64,000 nt of DNA, taken from positions 1,580 to 65,579 of the forward strand of contig NZ_JAVJUY010000051.1 in assembly GCF_040220315.1 (NCBI RefSeq). The letters run 5' to 3'. Positions 30,609 through 42,943 of the stretch are shown one piece after another. Positions within the stretch are counted from its first letter, which is position 1. Every line of letters begins with the position of its first letter. The notes under the pieces are model-generated. The model did not search any database and had not been told where the DNA came from. It worked only from the letters and a program-made list of their open reading frames with translations. Both the position numbers and the translations under genes were made by a program. This DNA comes from Fulvivirga sp. (lineage in GTDB: Bacteria > Bacteroidota > Bacteroidia > Cytophagales > Cyclobacteriaceae).

Positions 30609-31910
30609 TTAGTTACCTCTCCTTGAACCTCCTGAAGAACGCGATCCGCCAGATGATCTGGAGCCACCACTACTTCTGCTGCCTGAAGAGCCTGATGACA
30701 TTCGGCTACCCCCAGAAGATCTGGAACCTGAACTTGGTCGTGAGTAACTCCCAGATCTACTTCCAGAGCTCGGTCTGGAATAGCTTCCTGATCTGCTTCC
30801 AGAGCTAGGCGTGCTCCAACCTGACGATCTTCTCTGTGGAGAATTACCATAGCTACCTGATGATCTTGTTCTGGAATTAGGATAAGAACCATAACTGCCA
30901 CTTCTTGAACCGTTCGAAGGCCTGCTATATGTCGAATTCGATCTTGAACCAGATGAATTTGATCTGTCGTAAGAAGACCTGCTGTATGAAGATCTTGAAT
31001 TAGTAGCCTCAGAATTTACTTCAGAAGATGGTTGAGACCTTCTGTAGTAAGATGATCTACTTGCAGCATTTCTGGTATATCTGTTATCAACCCTACTGTT
31101 TGAGTTATCAACTCTGCCGGTAGTTCTACCATTAGATACACCATCATTTGAAGCAACTCGTGACCTTGTTGAACGGCTTGAGTTAACAGTACCTGTACTT
31201 CTGGAAGAACCAACACCTCTTCTAAAACTTCTGTTACTTCTCGTTTCAACGTTATTAATAACAATTACATTATTTCTGTAAGGGTTAAAGAAAGGGTCAT
31301 TCCAGCCCCAGCCACCACCGTAAAACCATGGGTCGTACCATCCGCCTCCCCAGCCGTAACCTATACCCACATTCCAGCCAGATCTCCAGCCCCAACGATT
31401 TCTCCATCTCCAATCATTCCAGCCCCAGCCCCAGCCAGTACCAAAACCAACTGAAACGGACCATCCCGGACGACCAATAATTCCTGGACCATACCATGGA
31501 TCGTAAAATCCACCCCAATTATTGCCATAAAATCCATTGTTAAAACCTGGGTTAGAATAGTAATAATTATTAACCACAGGTGGGTTTTGACCATTATTTT
31601 CAGGGTTATCCACGTAATAATCATCCTCATAGTATCCATTATCCTCTTGATAAGATTCAGCGGAATATTTAGCTACATATTCTGGGTTTACATTTTTTTG
31701 TGAATAGCTGGTCTCAGGAGCCACATCGTTAAAATTGGTTTTAACATCTTCTACCTGAGGCTGAGCACTAATTTCCTTGCGTGCCTTCTTTTTTGCTTCC
31801 CGGTCTTTTGGTGTGAAATACAGATCGTCATTTTCTTGTGCAATACTTACACTCGAAATTACGATTCCAACTAAGAACAGAATTGAAGTAAATTTAATTG
31901 TCGTTTTCAT
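30609..31910 (-). CDS. Secreted low-complexity protein (Gly/Trp/Tyr-rich middle, Arg/Ser/Gly-rich tail)
   Basis: 433-aa ORF with signal peptide and DDLYF motif, upstream of the FadL-like gene and divergent from proS. Confidence 0.8.
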   Translation of the reverse strand: MKTTIKFTSILFLVGIVISSVSIAQENDDLYFTPKDREAKKKARKEISAQPQVEDVKTNFNDVAPETSYSQKNVNPEYVAKYSAESYQEDNGYYEDDYYVDNPENNGQNPPVVNNYYYSNPGFNNGFYGNNWGGFYDPWYGPGIIGRPGWSVSVGFGTGWGWGWNDWRWRNRWGWRSGWNVGIGYGWGGGWYDPWFYGGGWGWNDPFFNPYRNNVIVINNVETRSNRSFRRGVGSSRSTGTVNSSRSTRSRVASNDGVSNGRTTGRVDNSNSRVDNRYTRNAASRSSYYRRSQPSSEVNSEATNSRSSYSRSSYDRSNSSGSRSNSTYSRPSNGSRSGSYGSYPNSRTRSSGSYGNSPQRRSSGWSTPSSGSRSGSYSRPSSGSRSGSYSRPSSGSRSSGGSRMSSGSSGSRSSGGSRSSGGSRSSGGSRRGN

Positions 31911-33520: not shown

Positions 33521-33541
33521 TTGAGTTTATGCTTACAAATG

Positions 33542-33573
33542 AAAGCAACCTGACATATTGGGTTGCTTTTTTT
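33542..33573 (+). terminator. Intrinsic terminator after proS
   Basis: AAAGCAACC / GGTTGCTTT stem followed by T run. Confidence 0.85.
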
Positions 33574-33620: not shown

Positions 33621-35129
33621 ATGGCGTTTAAGAACGACATGTCTAGATTGGTAAAAAAGTTGAGGCGAAGAAACCGATTCATTCTAGTAGTGCTATCAGC
33701 AATTGGTATTTTACTAGTCTATTTGATTTCATCTACTCATTTACTTCAGAGAGAAAAAACAAAACAACTGATCCTACAAAAACTGAGAGCCATTTCAATC
33801 ACTGCAAGTGAACAAATTGATGGTGATGCACATGAGTATGTTGTTAATACTTTCAATAGTAAAAATGATGTACGTTCATCCAAAGACGATTCTGTTTACC
33901 ATAAGCTGCACGCTCAGCTCAAAAGAATTAAAAGAATTAATGAAATCGCCAGCCCTATCTATACCATGGTTTTTAATGCCGATCATAATGAATATGAATT
34001 TATAGTCACTTCTTCAGATGAACCGTATTACAGACACATGTTTGTGAATTATCCTACGGAGCTAAGAATGAATTATAATATTGGTGGTGTAATTGATGAG
34101 TATAAAACAGAAAATGGTACCTGGTTAAGTGCTTTTGCTCCAATAAAAAATTCGAAGGGTGAAGTGGTAGCAATATTACAAGTAGATCAGGAGTTTGATT
34201 CATTTCTGGAAGAAGCCCACTCAGATCTTATAAAAAATATACTGGTGGCATCTGTGTTATTCGTTCCTTTTATGATTTTATTGTTTTCTTATATGAGAAA
34301 TGTTTTGACCAAAGAGGAACAGAATCAGCTGCTTTTGGAAGAACGCAATGAAGAAATTGAAATTCAGAATGAGATGATTAAAGAGGCGAACTTAAAACTT
34401 GAAAAAGCTAACTTAATTATACAAGCACGAAATGACACGTTGGATAAACAAGTAAAAAAACGCACTAAAGAGCTCCTGGAGGCCAATCAGGATTTAGAAA
34501 CATTTCTATATAGATCATCGCACGACATTCAAGGGCCCATTGCTTCATTGAAGGGCGTAGTGAATTTAGCGCAAGCAGACATTACTAATGGAATAGATTA
34601 CTACAACTTTATTCATGCAAGTGTCAATCAACTGGAGACGAGAGTACGGGGGATTAATGCTGTATTTGAAATTAAAAAGCAAGAGTTGGACTGGGTACAG
34701 TTGAGTATTCGTGAGGTATTTGATGAAGTTGTGGCAGACCAATGTAAAAAGCTAGATTTTAGTGATGTTGACCTAATTTTTGGAGATAATGCACTCATTA
34801 AAAGTGACAGAACGATACTGAATGTGCTTTTCTCTGAGCTAGTAAAAAATTCAATCATGTATCGTGATGGTGAAAATGTCAAGATTCATTTAACAACCGA
34901 ACTTGTAGGGCAAAAACACATTAGAATTACTTACAAGGACAATGGACTAGGAATAGATGCAGATCAACAAAATACCATTTTTGATATGTTTAAAAGAGGG
35001 AATGAGAAATCTCAAGGTTCCGGCCTTGGGCTGTATGCAGTAAAACTTGCTCTTGAAAAGCTGCATGGCAATATATCCCTTCTGAATGCCCGCAATGGCG
35101 TGACTTTTCAAATTAATTTACCTAGATAA
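33621..35129 (+). CDS. Membrane sensor histidine kinase (Cache/PDC-like sensor, HisKA, HATPase)
   Basis: Two TM segments around WLSAFAPIKNSKGEVVAILQVD; H-box SHDIQGP; N/G boxes ELVKNS, DNGLGI, GSGLGL. Confidence 0.9.
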   Translation: MAFKNDMSRLVKKLRRRNRFILVVLSAIGILLVYLISSTHLLQREKTKQLILQKLRAISITASEQIDGDAHEYVVNTFNSKNDVRSSKDDSVYHKLHAQLKRIKRINEIASPIYTMVFNADHNEYEFIVTSSDEPYYRHMFVNYPTELRMNYNIGGVIDEYKTENGTWLSAFAPIKNSKGEVVAILQVDQEFDSFLEEAHSDLIKNILVASVLFVPFMILLFSYMRNVLTKEEQNQLLLEERNEEIEIQNEMIKEANLKLEKANLIIQARNDTLDKQVKKRTKELLEANQDLETFLYRSSHDIQGPIASLKGVVNLAQADITNGIDYYNFIHASVNQLETRVRGINAVFEIKKQELDWVQLSIREVFDEVVADQCKKLDFSDVDLIFGDNALIKSDRTILNVLFSELVKNSIMYRDGENVKIHLTTELVGQKHIRITYKDNGLGIDADQQNTIFDMFKRGNEKSQGSGLGLYAVKLALEKLHGNISLLNARNGVTFQINLPR

Positions 35130-35188
35130 CTATCTGTCATTGATATGACTTTGCACATAGTTAGGATTGGCTTACTTTGCAACCTTGT

Positions 35189-35878
35189 ATGAAGCAACTT
35201 GTTAAGGTAATTATACCAGCCTTTAATGAAGAAAACGGAGTGGGTTCTGTTATAGCAGAGATACCCAATGATATTGTAGATGAAGTAATTGTAGTCAATA
35301 ATGCTTCTACTGATGATACTGAAAAAGCAGCAGCTAAGGCTGGGGCAACTGTTCTGAGGGAAGAAGTTAAAGGATATGGCAGGGCTTGCCTGAAGGGTAT
35401 TGAGTATATCAAAAAACAAGAAAACAAACCTGATATTATTGTATTTTTAGATGCAGATTACTCTGACTATCCTGAGGAAATGAGGGATTTAATAAAACCT
35501 ATCATTGAACAGGACATGGATTTGGTGATTGGGTCGAGAGCATTGGGCAACAAAGAGAAAGGAGCAATGACACCGCAGCAAGTTTTTGGAAACTGGTTGG
35601 CTACAGGATTATTAAAGTTGTTTTATAATGTAAATTTTACTGATTTGGGTCCATTCAGGGCTATTAAATATGAAAGTTTAATAGCATTGAATATGAAAGA
35701 CAAAACATATGGCTGGACTGTAGAGATGCAATTGAAGGCAGCTAAAATGAAAATGAAATGTACAGAAGTACCAGTGAATTATAGAAAAAGAATAGGATTT
35801 TCAAAAGTTTCCGGAACGGTTAAGGGAACTGTCATGGCAGGATATAAAATAATTTGGACCATTTTTAAGTACTTGTAA
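35189..35878 (+). CDS. GT2 glycosyltransferase, polyprenol-phosphate-sugar synthase-like
   Basis: IIPAFNEE, VVNNASTD, GYGRAC, FLDAD, IGSR; about 229 aa with no TM; start moved to ATG 35189. Confidence 0.88.
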   Translation: MKQLVKVIIPAFNEENGVGSVIAEIPNDIVDEVIVVNNASTDDTEKAAAKAGATVLREEVKGYGRACLKGIEYIKKQENKPDIIVFLDADYSDYPEEMRDLIKPIIEQDMDLVIGSRALGNKEKGAMTPQQVFGNWLATGLLKLFYNVNFTDLGPFRAIKYESLIALNMKDKTYGWTVEMQLKAAKMKMKCTEVPVNYRKRIGFSKVSGTVKGTVMAGYKIIWTIFKYL

Positions 35879-35879
35879 T

Positions 35880-37346
35880 ATGGAGTGGTTAGTTATTGTA
35901 CCCTATAGTCTTGCGCTGCTGTTTATATTCATTTTCAGCCTGAGCCAACTTAATCTGACCTGGCATTATCTAAGATCGAAAAAGGCGCTGAGTAAACCTT
36001 CTTTTGAGTTAAAAGAATTTCCCAAGGTAACGGTACAGCTACCCATTTATAACGAAAAATATGTTGTTGAGCGGTTGCTCATTAAAGTATCCCAATTCAT
36101 TTACCCAAAAGATAAGTTAGAAATTCAAGTACTAGACGATTCCACAGATGAAACAATCGAACTTACTTCTGCATTGGTTGACAAATTGAAAAAAACCGGC
36201 CTGGATATTAAGCATATTAGAAGGCCTAAACGAGAGGGCTTTAAAGCAGGCGCACTCCAGTACGGAATGCAAATCTGTAAAGGAGACTTCATTGCTATTT
36301 TCGATTCTGATTTTTTACCCGAACCGGATTTCCTACTTAAAACTATAGCACAGTTTGAGCAAAATACCGGTGTGGTTCAAACTCGCTGGGGGCACTTAAA
36401 TAGAGATTATTCTTTATTAACTGAGCTACAGGCTTTCGGTTTGGATGCCCATTTTTCTGTGGAACAATCCGGCAGAAGCCATGCCAATAGTTTTATTAAT
36501 TTTAACGGAACAGGAGGGGTGTGGAGGAAAGAGTGCGTTATTGATGCTGGTGGCTGGTCTGCTGATACGTTGACTGAAGACTTGGATCTTAGCTATCGGG
36601 CGCAACTAAAAGGCTGGAAATTCAAATACCTGGAAGATTGTGTAGCTCCCGCAGAACTACCTGTTATTATGTCTGCTGTAAAATCTCAGCAGTATAGATG
36701 GAATAAAGGAGCGGCTGAAACTGCCCGTAAAAATTTGGGTAAGGTTTTACGCTCAAGAATGGGGTTTGGGAATAAAATGCATGCCATCTTTCATTTATTT
36801 AACAGCTCAGTTTTCGTTTGTTTGTTAATTGCCGCTCTTTTAAGCATCCCTATGCTTTATATTAAGGATGCCAACCCGAGGTTAGAATTGCTTTTTGACA
36901 TTGGTAGCATTTTTCTGCTAGGGTTTTTCTCAATTACTATTTTCTATTGGGTAGCTACAAAAAGGATGGTTCCAGATGGTACTTCCAAGTACTTTTTTAA
37001 AATATATCCTATGTTTTTAACAGTTTCAATGGGGCTTTCGCTTCATAATGGGCTAGCTGTTTTAGAGGGTTTGTTTGGGTTTAAAAGTGAGTTTATTAGA
37101 ACACCCAAATTTGGGATTAAGAGTAAGTTGGATTCCTGGGAGAATAATAGCTACATTAAGCCAAAAATTAACTTTCTTATTATCATGGAAGCATTTCTAA
37201 GCTTCTACTTTTTCTTTGGTGTAAGTAGTGGTATTTTCTTAAAAGACTGGGGGTTAGTGATTTTCCACCTCATGTTGGCTATAGGTTTTGCGATGGTATT
37301 TATACATTCCATAAAGAGTATTCCAGGTGCTGTTTCTGCAAAGTAA
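35880..37346 (+). CDS. Membrane GT2 of cellulose-synthase-like (CslA/CslC-like) type
   Basis: QLPIYNE, DDSTD, GFKAGAL, DSD, FNGTGGVWR, TEDLDL, QQYRW (D,D,D,QxxRW), FIRTPK; N- and C-terminal TMs. Confidence 0.88.
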   Translation: MEWLVIVPYSLALLFIFIFSLSQLNLTWHYLRSKKALSKPSFELKEFPKVTVQLPIYNEKYVVERLLIKVSQFIYPKDKLEIQVLDDSTDETIELTSALVDKLKKTGLDIKHIRRPKREGFKAGALQYGMQICKGDFIAIFDSDFLPEPDFLLKTIAQFEQNTGVVQTRWGHLNRDYSLLTELQAFGLDAHFSVEQSGRSHANSFINFNGTGGVWRKECVIDAGGWSADTLTEDLDLSYRAQLKGWKFKYLEDCVAPAELPVIMSAVKSQQYRWNKGAAETARKNLGKVLRSRMGFGNKMHAIFHLFNSSVFVCLLIAALLSIPMLYIKDANPRLELLFDIGSIFLLGFFSITIFYWVATKRMVPDGTSKYFFKIYPMFLTVSMGLSLHNGLAVLEGLFGFKSEFIRTPKFGIKSKLDSWENNSYIKPKINFLIIMEAFLSFYFFFGVSSGIFLKDWGLVIFHLMLAIGFAMVFIHSIKSIPGAVSAK

Positions 37347-38670
37347 GAATAAGCTGCTGTGGTTATTAATGGCCTCAAGCATTTTGCTCTATGTCCAAAT
37401 AGCATTTAACACCCACAGATTTGAAAGCTTCACGCTTATTTCTTCGTATAGTCTGGTGTTCATTTTCTATTTAATACTGGTTAGAAAGTATTCTTATTCT
37501 GCAATAACTATTAATTACCTGTTGGGTTTGGCAATAGTTATCAGGTTGATATTGGTTGGTGCCTTTCCTTCGCTATCAGATGATATATATAGATTTATTT
37601 GGGATGGAAGATTATTAAATGCGGGTATTCATCCGTTCACTGAAGTGCCGTCATTTTATATGATTAAAGGGAATGAAGTTGCGGGGTTAGATCAGCCACT
37701 TTATTCAAAATTGAATTCACCAGAGTATTTTACGATTTACCCGCCTTTTGCACAATTCGTTTATTGGGTATCAACATACGTTACTGATTCAATTTATCTA
37801 AGCTGTATAATTATTAAATCATTGATCGTTTTGGCGGAAGTTGGCTCTATTTTCATTGGAATCAAATTGCTGCAGCGTTATAACCTGCCCAAAAGAAATA
37901 TTTTACTTTATGCTTTAAACCCATTAGTAATCCTGGAGCTAACGGGAAACCTTCATTTTGAGGCATTTATGATTTTCTTCTTACTATTATCTGTTTATCT
38001 GATCCATGAGTATTCAATGATCAGATCAGGATTTTTTATGGCTGCTAGTATTGCCAGTAAGTTAATTCCAATCATGTTTTTACCTCTTTTATTAAGGCGA
38101 TTGAAAGCTAAACCCTTATTAAAATGGTATTTGGCAATATTGATTTTTTCGTCATTATTCTTTTTTCCGTTGTTCCGTCCTGAGTTTATTACAGGAATGA
38201 GCGAAAGCCTTGGTCTTTATTTTCAAAAATTTGAGTTTAACGCCAGTATATATTATATCGTCAGAGAAGTAGGATTTTGGATAAAAGGTTATAATATCAT
38301 CGGTTTTGCAGGCAAGTTATTGGCACTATTCTCCTTTTTAAGTATTGTGGCCCTTAGTATTTTTTATCGAAAAAGTGTCAATATATTCGAGTTGATGATG
38401 TTAGCACTTACTACGTATTTACTGTTATCAACAATCGTTCATCCCTGGTACATTACCACAATTATTTTTCTATCTGTCTTCACTAAATACAGATATTCAA
38501 TAGTATGGTCACTGTTGATATTTTTTACTTATTTAGGGTATACCAAAACAGGTTTTCAGGAAAACATGTTAGTAGTTGTAGTAGAATATATAGTGGTGAT
38601 AGCAGTTTTAATTTATGAGATTTATGCAGTTTCTAAGAAAAGAACTCCCTGGTTGGCAAAAGGTGCCTAG
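37327..38670 (+). CDS. GT-C fold polytopic glycosyltransferase (GT87/DUF2029-like)
   Basis: About 11 TM segments; first-loop LSDDIYRFIWDG, TIYPP, NPL, HFE, VHPWY motifs. Confidence 0.78.
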   Translation: MLFLQSKNKLLWLLMASSILLYVQIAFNTHRFESFTLISSYSLVFIFYLILVRKYSYSAITINYLLGLAIVIRLILVGAFPSLSDDIYRFIWDGRLLNAGIHPFTEVPSFYMIKGNEVAGLDQPLYSKLNSPEYFTIYPPFAQFVYWVSTYVTDSIYLSCIIIKSLIVLAEVGSIFIGIKLLQRYNLPKRNILLYALNPLVILELTGNLHFEAFMIFFLLLSVYLIHEYSMIRSGFFMAASIASKLIPIMFLPLLLRRLKAKPLLKWYLAILIFSSLFFFPLFRPEFITGMSESLGLYFQKFEFNASIYYIVREVGFWIKGYNIIGFAGKLLALFSFLSIVALSIFYRKSVNIFELMMLALTTYLLLSTIVHPWYITTIIFLSVFTKYRYSIVWSLLIFFTYLGYTKTGFQENMLVVVVEYIVVIAVLIYEIYAVSKKRTPWLAKGA

Positions 38671-39163
38671 TTACATTTTTTTAGTATTTACCCTTGTAGC
38701 CTGTAATAGTATGTACGCACAAGAAGATTTTAATAAAAAAGTATCATCACTTTTAAAGAATACAGTGCCATTGGTGACCAGTGCTGAATTAGACACCTTA
38801 TTACAGAAAAATCCTAATCTAATTCTGCTGGATACAAGATCCTCCAAAGAATATGAAGTTAGTAAGATTGCGGCCGCAAAATTTATTGACTATGATGATT
38901 TTAAACCCGAAATGGTTCGGGGGATACCTAAAGAGGAGCAGATTGTAGTTTATTGTTCTGTTGGGTATCGTAGTGAAAAAATTGGCGAGAAGTTGCAGGA
39001 GTTAGGTTATAATAACGTGCTCAATTTATATGGCGGCATTTTCGATTGGAAAAATACTGATCACACTGTTATCAATGAAAAAAACCAACCTACTGACAGT
39101 GTGCATACATATAATAAGAATTGGTCCAAATACTTACACAAAGGTGTAAAAGTATATGACTAA
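38615..39163 (+). CDS. Exported single-domain rhodanese-like protein
   Basis: LLDTRSSKEYEVSKI, active-site loop YCSVGYRS, NLYGGIFDW; hydrophobic leader with LVAC; true start may be GTG 38663. Confidence 0.85.
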   Translation: MRFMQFLRKELPGWQKVPSYIFLVFTLVACNSMYAQEDFNKKVSSLLKNTVPLVTSAELDTLLQKNPNLILLDTRSSKEYEVSKIAAAKFIDYDDFKPEMVRGIPKEEQIVVYCSVGYRSEKIGEKLQELGYNNVLNLYGGIFDWKNTDHTVINEKNQPTDSVHTYNKNWSKYLHKGVKVYD

Positions 39164-39764
39164 TCATCTGATTATTTTTGCTAAAAACCCGGAATTAGGT
39201 AGCACTAAGACTCGTATTGGCACTAAACTAGGAGACGATGTCGCGCTGGCTATTTATTATAGTTTAATTCATCGAGCACAACGGGTTACCGCCAACATAA
39301 AAGCCCGTAAGATAGTATATTATTCTTCATTTGTAGATCGTGAAGATTCATGGGATAATAACACCTTTGAAAAGAGGCGACAGGTAAAAAAAGAACTCGG
39401 TGTTCGAATGGCAACAGCCATCAATGAGTCATTCAATGAAAATGCAAAAAAGGTTGTGCTTATTGGTACTGATATTTATGATCTAACACCTCAAATTATA
39501 AATGATGCCTTTGATCAGCTTTCAAATCATGATGTGGTTATTGGCCCAGCAAAAGATGGAGGTTATTATCTTATTGGTTTATCTCAACCGGCAGATTCAC
39601 TATTTAAATTAAGTGCCTGGAGTCATTCAGAAGTGTTTAACCAAACCAAAGAACTAATCGGTCGTGCTGGATTAACATTTTCTTTGCTACCTGAACTTAA
39701 TGATATTGATGAGCCTGACGATTTAAAGGGAACCAATCTGGAGCAATTCCTGATAGAAAAATAA
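39156..39764 (+). CDS. DUF2064 / TIGR04282-like CofC-fold transferase
   Basis: LIIFAKNPELGSTKTRI, VLIGTD, VVIGPAKDGGYYLIG, LNDID..DDL. Confidence 0.87.
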   Translation: MTNHLIIFAKNPELGSTKTRIGTKLGDDVALAIYYSLIHRAQRVTANIKARKIVYYSSFVDREDSWDNNTFEKRRQVKKELGVRMATAINESFNENAKKVVLIGTDIYDLTPQIINDAFDQLSNHDVVIGPAKDGGYYLIGLSQPADSLFKLSAWSHSEVFNQTKELIGRAGLTFSLLPELNDIDEPDDLKGTNLEQFLIEK

Positions 39765-40856: not shown

Positions 40857-41408
40857 TTATGCGTTAATAGTCTCTAATTCAGGTGCAGCTGGGAAGTCTA
40901 CAGGAATTTGAGTAGCACCATGTATAAAGTTGCTGATGATTTTATCACCTATTACCATGATAATATCCACCAAGTTGGCTTTTGTATAGCCAGCGTTGAA
41001 TAAATTATCAACGGCATCAGAGCTTGGTTTACTTCTGTTTTCAGTAATATTTTTTACAAAAGCTGCGAGAGCATTTAATTTCTCATTGAATGAAACATTA
41101 CCAATTCTAATCTCCAAAATTTGCTCATCGGTAAAACCGTTCATTTTACCAATGGCTGTATGAGCTGCTAAACAATATTCACACTCATTCACTTGAGAAA
41201 CTACCAGGTTAATAACTTCTCTTTCTTTAGCTGTTAATGTACTTTTTCTGTTTTGAAGTGCAAGGTAGTCGGCTAGGGCCGTGTCGTTGTGAGCATACGT
41301 AGCGTAAAGGTTAGGTACAAAACCTAGTCCTTTTTCGAGCTGATCAAATATTGCCTGATTGTTGGCACTTACTTCATTTTTTGTTGGAACATTTATTTGC
41401 GTTGCCAT
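40857..41408 (-). CDS. Carboxymuconolactone decarboxylase / AhpD-like peroxidase family protein
   Basis: GFVPNLY, REVINLVVSQVNECEYCLAAH (CxxC-x3-H). Confidence 0.88.
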   Translation of the reverse strand: MATQINVPTKNEVSANNQAIFDQLEKGLGFVPNLYATYAHNDTALADYLALQNRKSTLTAKEREVINLVVSQVNECEYCLAAHTAIGKMNGFTDEQILEIRIGNVSFNEKLNALAAFVKNITENRSKPSSDAVDNLFNAGYTKANLVDIIMVIGDKIISNFIHGATQIPVDFPAAPELETINA

Positions 41409-42604: not shown

Positions 42605-42943
42605 TTGGCACGACAATTTAAATTCAAAGCATGGAACAAGGATACAAAACTTCTGATGCGATTAAATCAAATTGATTGCGTGAAGGGTGTTTTAGTAAAG
42701 GAAGACCACGTGTTATTACAATTTACCGGGCTGCATGATAAAAGCGGGAGCGAAATATATGAAGGTGATATACTGCTTTTTGGTACAGATAAGGCCATTG
42801 TAAAGTGGAATGAAGAGTCATTTTCGTGGACTTTAGTTAATGAAATTGGGGGTAGTCATCGACCTTTTACTTCTATTGAAATGGAAAAAGGAGTTAAGCT
42901 CTGTAACGTTTTTGAGTCACCAGAATCTTTTTCTTCAGAATAG
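42605..42943 (+). CDS. YopX-family protein
   Basis: FKFKAWNK N-terminus and QFTGLHDKSGSEIYEGDIL signature; TTG start. Confidence 0.85.
   Translation: MARQFKFKAWNKDTKLLMRLNQIDCVKGVLVKEDHVLLQFTGLHDKSGSEIYEGDILLFGTDKAIVKWNEESFSWTLVNEIGGSHRPFTSIEMEKGVKLCNVFESPESFSSE

Follow-up and report, generated by a model that had tools for sequence, protein, structure and literature searches.

The 64,000-nt stretch of Fulvivirga sp. DNA analysed here (the window) contains, at 35189-39764, five open reading frames (ORFs), all on the plus strand, that encode two family 2 glycosyltransferases (GT2), a polytopic GT-C glycosyltransferase, an exported rhodanese and a protein of the TIGR04282/DUF2064 family. We characterised this cluster, together with the sensor histidine kinase gene that precedes it, by comparing its products with known families and structures and its gene order with that of related loci. 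The features, and the evidence on which each was assigned, are as follows.

33621-35129, plus strand: sensor histidine kinase (HATPase_c domain)
35189-35878, plus strand: g1, GT2s, a short soluble GT2 (PF00535, NCBIfam, PDB alignment)
35880-37346, plus strand: g2, GT2m, a membrane GT2 (Pfam GT2 clan, AlphaFold2 (AF2) and Foldseek, motifs)
37369-38670, plus strand: g3, GT-C, MptA_B/GT87-like (fold, transmembrane segments, Pfam matches of orthologues)
38615-39163, plus strand: g4, exported single-domain rhodanese (NF045521, PF00581)
39156-39764, plus strand: g5, TIGR04282/DUF2064, CofC-like (TIGR04282, DUF2064, PDB 3CGX)

The ATG start of g1 agrees with the 229-aa orthologue from Fulvivirga lutea, and a TTG at 35177 is equally open. 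A 1-bp gap separates g1 from g2, and g3 can start either at GTG 37327, overlapping g2 by 20 bp, or at ATG 37369. The start of g4 overlaps the end of g3, g4 and g5 overlap by 8 bp, and a convergent gene begins 6 bp past g5. An earlier reading of the window made from its letters (the original prediction) had described five same-strand genes joined by a 1-bp gap or overlapping junctions, and the coordinates agree, with the ATG option for g3 leaving a gap of 22 bp. In a terminator scan, a strong terminator-like hairpin was found at 33541-33570, after proS and upstream of the kinase, and no terminator-like site was found from the kinase through g5; a sigma-70 promoter scan was uninformative, since Bacteroidota promoters lie outside its coverage. 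The closest complete genome, that of F. lutea (CP070608.1), carries the kinase and the five genes in identical order, its GT2m and GT-C being 88% and 76% identical to those of the window, and a homologous kinase lies directly 5' of GT2s in this and several other Fulvivirga/Cyclobacteriaceae loci. Judged from the sequence, the kinase may share a transcript with the five genes and may regulate them, its membership being tentative.

The short enzyme encoded by g1 matches PF00535 at 1.9e-21, and no transmembrane (TM) segment was found in it. Its top NCBIfam matches are AglJ, PpgS and Dol-P-hexose transferase, every one under its cutoff (for AglJ, 131 bits over residues 9-232 against 325), and its residues 8-213 align to the Pyrococcus DPM synthase (DPMS, PDB 5MLZ) at 4.7e-7. 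Identity across loci is 63-81%. An assignment to TIGR04283 was rejected, the match being confined to the N-terminal 100 residues and scoring 38.1 bits against a cutoff of 182, where bona fide members score 228-302 bits. GT2s is predicted to be a polyprenyl-phosphate sugar synthase analogous to MtxS of the mycobacterial methylthioxylose (MTX) system.

By comparison, the 488-aa GT2m has one N-terminal TM helix and several C-terminal ones, and its invariant motifs (D86 D87, D142xD144, T232 E233 D234 and Q270 Q271 x R273 W274) are those of the processive cellulose-synthase-like GT2 enzymes: D, DxD, TED and QxxRW, together with a BcsA-like membrane channel domain. It matches BcsA by sequence at 1.5e-17, and its AF2 model (pLDDT 89) has BcsA as its top Foldseek match (TMq 0.64-0.68 over ~510 alignment columns), followed by PcManGT, hyaluronan synthases (HAS) and plant CesA. 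BcsA cellulose synthase proper was excluded (CelA, 102 bits against a cutoff of 699); a profile search found no PilZ domain, and there is no bcsB-like neighbour at the locus. A ceramide or diacylglycerol glucosyltransferase (GT21, 35 bits) was likewise set aside, because BcsA, PcManGT and HAS rank far higher by fold. The predicted role of GT2m is that of a processive synthase, of beta-glycan or oligosaccharide, by which the acceptor would be made or exported.

The g3 product has ~10 TM segments and an invariant D71 D72 in its first loop, a polytopic fold and acidic motif that place it in the GT-C class of PimE, ALG3 and the GPI mannosyltransferases (GPI-MT). Its AF2 model (pLDDT 88.8) retrieved PimE, GPI mannosyltransferase I (GPI-MT-I), PIG-U and ALG3 as top Foldseek matches (PimE 9dm7, E 1.5e-4; 9wno, E 3.7e-4; ALG3, TM 0.61-0.68). 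The Pfam profile search gave no match for g3 itself; its orthologues carry PF26314/PF09594 and are named MptB-like or GT87 in source databases. NCBIfam matches to MptB and TIGR03459 are weak, and MptB as such (NF038066) was rejected at 31.8 bits against a cutoff of 40. GT-C is predicted to transfer a sugar from a polyprenyl-phosphate donor on the periplasmic face, as an analogue of MtxT.

The g4 protein scores 189.4 bits against NF045521 (rhoda_near_glyco; cutoff 145), matches PF00581 and has the catalytic-Cys loop CSVGYR. In 50/50 orthologues there is a signal peptide together with the loop CS[VI]G[YIV]R, which bears out the export leader seen in the original prediction. The alternative that g4 is a lipoprotein with an LVAC lipobox was rejected, since the lipobox Cys is not conserved and the plain signal peptide is. 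We predict that g4 acts as a periplasmic sulfurtransferase or reductant on the arsenic centre discussed below. Finally, g5 matches TIGR04282 over its full length (195.4 bits, cutoff 134, model 1-189/189), PF09837 at 106.8 bits, DUF2064 at 7.8e-31, CofC at 3e-7 and PDB 3CGX at 1.2e-24. It has a nucleotidyltransferase fold and is predicted to turn a 5-substituted pentose-1-phosphate into the activated nucleotide sugar. Gene context is the source of the roles named for TIGR04282 and TIGR04283; we found no experiments in the literature, and searches for DUF2064, TIGR04282/TIGR04283, "selenodomain" and PF09837 returned nothing functional. Across all five proteins, the original family calls were upheld by these profile scores, motifs and folds.

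A scan for GT-C relatives yielded 502, the best 80 of which come from Cytophagales, Saprospiraceae and Chitinophagales; neighbours were counted in these 80, at loci with sufficient flanking DNA. GT2s lies upstream of GT-C at 55/70 loci and GT2m directly upstream at 51/70, and on the same strand downstream of GT-C we found TIGR04282 at 40/67 and the rhodanese at 29/67. The same five-gene order, proposed in the original prediction as a unit to be sought elsewhere, thus recurs in F. lutea and many other genomes, which argues that the arrangement is not due to chance. Some loci have GT2s and GT-C without GT2m, and a paralogous GT-C is found alone.

What recurs is more than a single arrangement. 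GT2s, GT2m and GT-C (the trio) are followed by TIGR04282, by the rhodanese and TIGR04282, by AhpD, ArsS, the rhodanese and TIGR04282, or by ArsS and TIGR04282, and elsewhere the trio and the ars genes are convergent neighbours. At two loci, labelled L057 and L061, a single strand reads GT2s-GT2m-GT-C-AhpD-ArsS-rhodanese-TIGR04282, with TIGR04169 (197 bits) and ArsS (TIGR04167, 453-456 bits) inserted between GT-C and the rhodanese. In Cesiribacter (L082) the trio is followed by ArsS-TIGR04282, and trio and ars sets adjoin in L247 (a Cytophagales metagenome-assembled genome, MAG), L087 and L089, the two being convergent in Pontibacter and L247.

Further genes accompany these loci. A ~335-aa gene without a family match fills the ArsS slot between GT-C and the rhodanese in two Cyclobacteriaceae MAGs (L031:11727-12746 and L078:11713-12711). 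Directly upstream of the trio in many Cytophagales lies a membrane 4Fe-4S protein of the Fer4_5 NapH/MauN type, ~590-610 aa long (upstream of GT2s at L037:5926-7713, with equivalents in L012, L029, L032, L039, L043, L046 and L071), and a Planctomycetota ArsM-ArsS pair has upstream of it a YpdA-like reductase that carries a fused NapH-like domain (L283:3054-5678); the NapH-type protein may be a redox partner. On the 3' side of TIGR04282, many Cytophagales loci, such as L008:12432-14609 and the many that show the pattern '226< 272> 182>', encode a regulator of the Crp family along with proteins of the MOSC-domain and UPF0093 types, and Cesiribacter has a MOSC protein after ArsS-TIGR04282 (L082:11961-12842). 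The window has none of these Crp-family, MOSC and UPF0093 genes.

To place the ars genes in context, partners were counted within 6 kb of ArsS at 80 ArsS loci. The canonical Bacteroidota module that emerged is AhpD-like-ArsS-(rhodanese)-TIGR04282-(TIGR04283)-PNP-ArsM, where PNP is a purine-nucleoside phosphorylase, as exemplified by Kordia (L155; PNP 336 bits, AsSugarArsM 580 bits). AhpD-like proteins were present at 71/80 loci, TIGR04282 at 35/80, ArsM at 27/80, PNP at 25/80, TIGR04283 at 22/80, a rhodanese at 12/80 and a GT-C at 3/80. In canonical arsS clusters such as L155 and L158, the NF045521 rhodanese has ArsS on one side and TIGR04282 on the other. Both it and TIGR04282 are standard members of the Bacteroidota ArsS/ArsM arsenosugar set, and the rhodanese brings nothing novel to the cluster, NF045521 being an already recognised partner family within arsS clusters.

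In three Fulvivirga genomes this module is split: an AhpD-ArsS-PNP-ArsM locus lacks the rhodanese and TIGR04282, both of which are found after the GT trio at another locus (arsS/trio pairs L140/L018, L142/L010 and L162/L081). In F. imtechensis, contig66 (L140) carries AhpD-ArsS-PNP-ArsM-AKR without rhodanese or TIGR04282, and contig69 (L018) carries the trio and TIGR04282, with a rhodanese that is visible by similarity and unlisted in the gene-order summary. The L142 and L010 loci of a complete Fulvivirga MAG are 0.45 Mb apart, and in F. lutea the position of AhpD(CMD)-ArsS-PNP-methyltransferase-AKR is 0.94 Mb and that of the five-gene cluster 4.08 Mb. Annotations of ArsS also exist for F. marina, F. 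kasyanovii, F. ligni and F. maritima.

The window also encodes, 1 kb downstream of the cluster (40857-41408, minus strand), a 183-aa CMD/AhpD-family protein with a CxxC motif, whose neighbours are a cupredoxin and an AraC regulator. Its match to the arsS-associated AhpD-like profile is weak (29.5 bits), so that a relation to TIGR04169 is improbable. In Pedobacter and Planctomycetota arsS clusters, a MerA-like FAD oxidoreductase (NF004991, up to 793 bits) adjoins TIGR04282/TIGR04283 (L131:12449-13885; L285:5586-7127).

Beyond Bacteroidota, a GC-biased DUF2064 motif scan gave 120 loci from many phyla, 89 of which carry DUF2064; accompanying it in the 8-kb pieces were TIGR04283-type GT2 proteins (21), GT2s-type GT2 proteins (11) and GT87 GT-C proteins (6). 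DUF2064 adjoins genes of the latter two types in Alpha- and Deltaproteobacteria, Chloroflexota, Rokubacteria and Actinomycetota: the order is DUF2064-GT-C-radical SAM-GT2s in Devosia and DUF2064-GT-C in Xanthobacteraceae, a Thermoleophilia MAG has GT2s, GT-C and DUF2064, and DUF2064 occurs with GT2s in Planctomycetota, Chloroflexota and Deltaproteobacteria. A cluster in the actinomycete Catellatospora combines a GT2s-type GT2, TIGR04282 (145 bits) and a true methylthioadenosine (MTA) phosphorylase (425 bits), and by BLASTP the window proteins match those of Catellatospora and Devosia.

Several of these genes are fused. A Phycisphaeraceae MAG (L283) encodes an ArsM-like methyltransferase and ArsS (415 bits), followed by a 914-aa protein that joins a GT87 GT-C, an AglJ-like GT2 and TIGR04282 (200 bits). 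In three other Planctomycetota MAGs (L284-286), a GT-C gene is followed by a GT2s+TIGR04282+TIGR04283 fusion, with ArsS ~6 kb upstream; the interval holds genes for a VTT(DedA)-DUF547 protein and an FAD oxidoreductase. TIGR04282+GT2s fusions are found in five Leptospirales genomes (L289-293), and a GT2m+GT2s fusion in one Gemmatimonadota MAG (L288). Because adjacency recurs in varied forms, DUF2064-GT loci are found in multiple phyla and fusion proteins join these same components, the comparative evidence indicates that the five genes constitute a functional unit.

Other members of these clusters deserve mention in their own right. DUF547, alone or fused to VTT/DedA, is found in ArsS/GT-C/GT2 clusters of Planctomycetota and Denitrobaculum (L285:3898-5580, L287:1685-2692). 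DedA-type proteins are linked to polyprenyl-phosphate handling, and the Planctomycetota VTT/DedA-DUF547 protein fits a role in handling the lipid carrier. In an actinomycete MAG, DUF2064 is fused to a radical SAM/SPASM enzyme other than ArsS (L233:675-3029, minus strand), and in Devosia a SPASM/twitch radical SAM gene lies between GT-C and GT2s (L217:2237-3304), which suggests that other radical-SAM-derived sugars share the same route. One locus labelled Mycobacteriaceae (L212) was left out as mis-binned, since it carries the lipopolysaccharide genes WaaA and LpxK. In L215, a 667-aa ORF was dismissed as an artefact of reading high-GC DNA in the wrong frame, and its 717-aa neighbour, with 12 TM segments, matches no family.

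Taken together, we put at about even the chance that the five genes, possibly with the kinase, are the membrane-proximal half of a split, arsenic-linked carrier-lipid pathway. Such a pathway would install a 5-deoxy-5-substituted pentose, most likely dimethylarsinoyl-ribose, on an envelope glycan or glycolipid by way of polyprenyl phosphate. ArsM and ArsS, encoded at the other locus, would make DDMAA (5'-deoxy-5'-dimethylarsinoyl-adenosine), a chemistry established for ArsS; on the later steps of arsenosugar and arsenolipid biosynthesis, which are not established, the literature consulted goes no further than a possible loss of the adenine and additional derivatisation of the ribose. The clustered purine-nucleoside phosphorylase would free the pentose-1-phosphate, from which TIGR04282, given its CofC-like fold and its fusions, would form a nucleotide sugar, and GT2s, by its DPM/AglJ-like family and the precedent of MtxS, would load the sugar onto polyprenyl phosphate. 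After flipping, GT-C would transfer it on the periplasmic face, as its fold and the precedent of MtxT suggest; the acceptor would be a beta-glycan or oligosaccharide that GT2m both synthesises and translocates. More speculatively, the exported rhodanese could act on the product or on periplasmic arsenic, for example by thiolation or reduction. The lipid-carrier logic of the ArnC/ArnT type on which the original prediction relied was judged right, and its suggestion of a nucleotide-activated decoration containing arsenic or sulfur, added outside the cytoplasm, agrees with the comparative evidence.

A number of observations weigh against this reading. The case for arsenic draws on the genomes of relatives and not on that of the window organism, and no arsS, arsM, PNP, TIGR04169 or TIGR04283 was found in the 64-kb window. 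A GT2 followed by a GT-C is predicted to give two inverting steps and hence an alpha linkage, unlike the known arsenosugars, which are beta-ribosides. Outside Bacteroidota, ArsS lies within 8 kb at only 2 of the 89 DUF2064 loci, so TIGR04282 is clearly not arsenic-specific across phyla. That count also favours an explanation in which the same machinery usually draws on a 5-deoxy-pentose without arsenic, derived from methylthioadenosine or 5'-deoxyadenosine as it is in MTX, with ArsS products used only opportunistically. The true MTA phosphorylase (MTAP) partnered in Catellatospora, the ties of DUF2064 to other radical SAM/SPASM enzymes in Devosia and the actinomycete MAG, and the high conservation of the trio all point the same way. 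We nevertheless consider it unlikely: the partners in Bacteroidota and Planctomycetota are specifically ArsS and an ArsM-type methyltransferase, the Fulvivirga arsS locus has no TIGR04282 of its own, and no MTAP gene was seen beside the trio in Bacteroidota loci.

The conservation of GT2s, which is close to that of ProS, makes a housekeeping sugar possible, and GT2s and GT2m are both far more conserved than the rhodanese and TIGR04282. Two unrelated modules could then simply be adjacent, namely a housekeeping polyprenyl-phosphate mannose or glucose trio with its beta-glycan synthase, and the displaced tail of a soluble-arsenosugar locus. This would also accommodate the annotation of GT-C relatives as MptB-like mannosyltransferases, the ~40% of trio loci without a downstream TIGR04282, and the arsS clusters of Flavobacteriia, which have the rhodanese and TIGR04282 with the trio not nearby. 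It is hard to square, however, with independent fusions of TIGR04282 to GT2s, GT-C and TIGR04283 in three phyla, with the recurrence of differing arrangements across families and phyla, or with the overlapping stop and start codons in the window, and we regard it as distinctly improbable. The original prediction took the missing ars partners as the sign of an undescribed orphan glycolipid system that works without arsS, arsM and TIGR04283. Their absence stands for the window but not for its relatives, in which AhpD-ArsS-PNP-ArsM lies at another locus: the closest complete genome, like other Fulvivirga genomes, encodes ArsS, PNP and ArsM away from the cluster, ArsS is inside the same operon in L057 and L061, and an intact arsS/arsM set was present elsewhere in every relative checked, which is the outcome that the original prediction had itself named as speaking against it. 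An orphan system is thus very unlikely indeed, and the split, arsenic-linked pathway is the preferred reading.

NCBIfam names already reflect the individual families as well as the placing of TIGR04282 and the rhodanese beside arsS, and the MTX system is published. In the literature we found nothing that ties the genes for arsenosugars to a GT2/GT-C route by way of polyprenyl phosphate together with a cellulose-synthase-like GT2, and no description of the fusion proteins or of the broad DUF2064-GT2-GT-C distribution. A wider proposal, which we consider possible though less likely than not, is that arsenosugars in many heterotrophic bacteria, among them Bacteroidota and Planctomycetota, serve as polyprenyl-phosphate-linked donors that decorate a dedicated beta-glycan or glycolipid in the periplasm, rather than being mainly soluble detoxification products. 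The outcome would be an arsenic-decorated envelope polymer, in which TIGR04282 supplies the missing sugar-1-phosphate nucleotidyltransferase and the rhodanese tunes the arsenic, for example to a thio-arsenosugar. Should the arsenic reading prove true, common marine Bacteroidota would be incorporating arsenic in the polymers of their envelopes, with a bearing on marine arsenic cycling. The locus and its relatives offer a testable enzyme series, PNP to TIGR04282 to short GT2 to GT-C, together with a candidate acceptor synthase. For some lineages the database name of TIGR04282, "arsenosugar biosynthesis glycosyltransferase", is too narrow, and for others it is incomplete.

Two other genes of the window may be recorded here. 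On the minus strand at 30609-31910 lies a 433-aa protein with a signal-like N-terminus and a W/G/N-rich middle GWGWGWNDWRWRNRWGW and a long, repetitive, Ser/Arg/Gly-rich tail SGSRSGSYSRPSSGSRS; in F. lutea the orthologue is 445 aa long and matches no Pfam family. On the plus strand at 42605-42943, a 112-aa ORF of the phage-type YopX family stands by itself, with an AraC regulator on one side and a two-component pair on the other, and is conserved in F. lutea.

Among known systems, the annotated arsenosugar set (TIGR04167, NF038099, TIGR04169, TIGR04282, TIGR04283) shares g5 itself with the cluster, along with the NF045521 rhodanese g4, and its ars genes are in trans in Fulvivirga. ArsS and ArsM, which mark an arsenosugar cluster, are not encoded in the window, whereas they are in cis in L057, L061, L082 and L283; conversely, GT-C and a cellulose-synthase-like GT2 are not part of the annotated set. 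GT2m has in common with BcsA and PcManGT, and may share with plant CslA, its fold, including the membrane domain, and the D/DxD/TED/QxxRW motifs, but differs from BcsA in being only 488 aa long and in lacking both a PilZ domain and a BcsB partner. In the three-component systems GtrA/GtrB/Gtr, ArnC/ArnT, GacI/GacL and CsbB/YfhO, a GT2 loads polyprenyl phosphate and a GT-C transfers the sugar outside to a pre-made glycan. Compared with these, the cluster has no GtrA-type flippase gene and its GT2s has no TM helices, and it adds a dedicated CofC-like activating enzyme and a link to radical-SAM sugar chemistry.

By analogy, the closest known system is the mycobacterial MTX capping of lipoarabinomannan (LAM). 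In the account that Angala and colleagues reportedly gave in 2017, a phosphorylase splits methylthioadenosine to give methylthioribose-1-phosphate, which is nucleotide-activated, epimerised and loaded on decaprenyl phosphate; Rv0540 is a putative DUF2064 protein. In M. tuberculosis the cap is 5-deoxy-5-methylthio-xylofuranose, MtxS (Rv0539) making the lipid donor and MtxT (Rv0541c) transferring it (PMC12088412; PMC8780516). The predicted likeness is that a short GT2 makes a polyprenyl-phosphate 5-deoxy-5-substituted pentose, which a GT-C transfers to a glycan outside the cytoplasm, and the Catellatospora cluster brings together a GT2s-type GT2, TIGR04282 and MTAP in an actinobacterium. DDMAA, the product of ArsS, is the arsenic analogue of methylthioadenosine, and the predicted substituent here is accordingly a dimethylarsinoyl group provided by ArsS/ArsM rather than methylthio. 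The Fulvivirga cluster further differs in its additional cellulose-synthase-like GT2 and exported rhodanese, in that no epimerase was seen here, and in an acceptor that is not LAM. This comparison suggests that the MTX route is one case of a widespread type of pathway for 5-deoxy-5-substituted pentoses.

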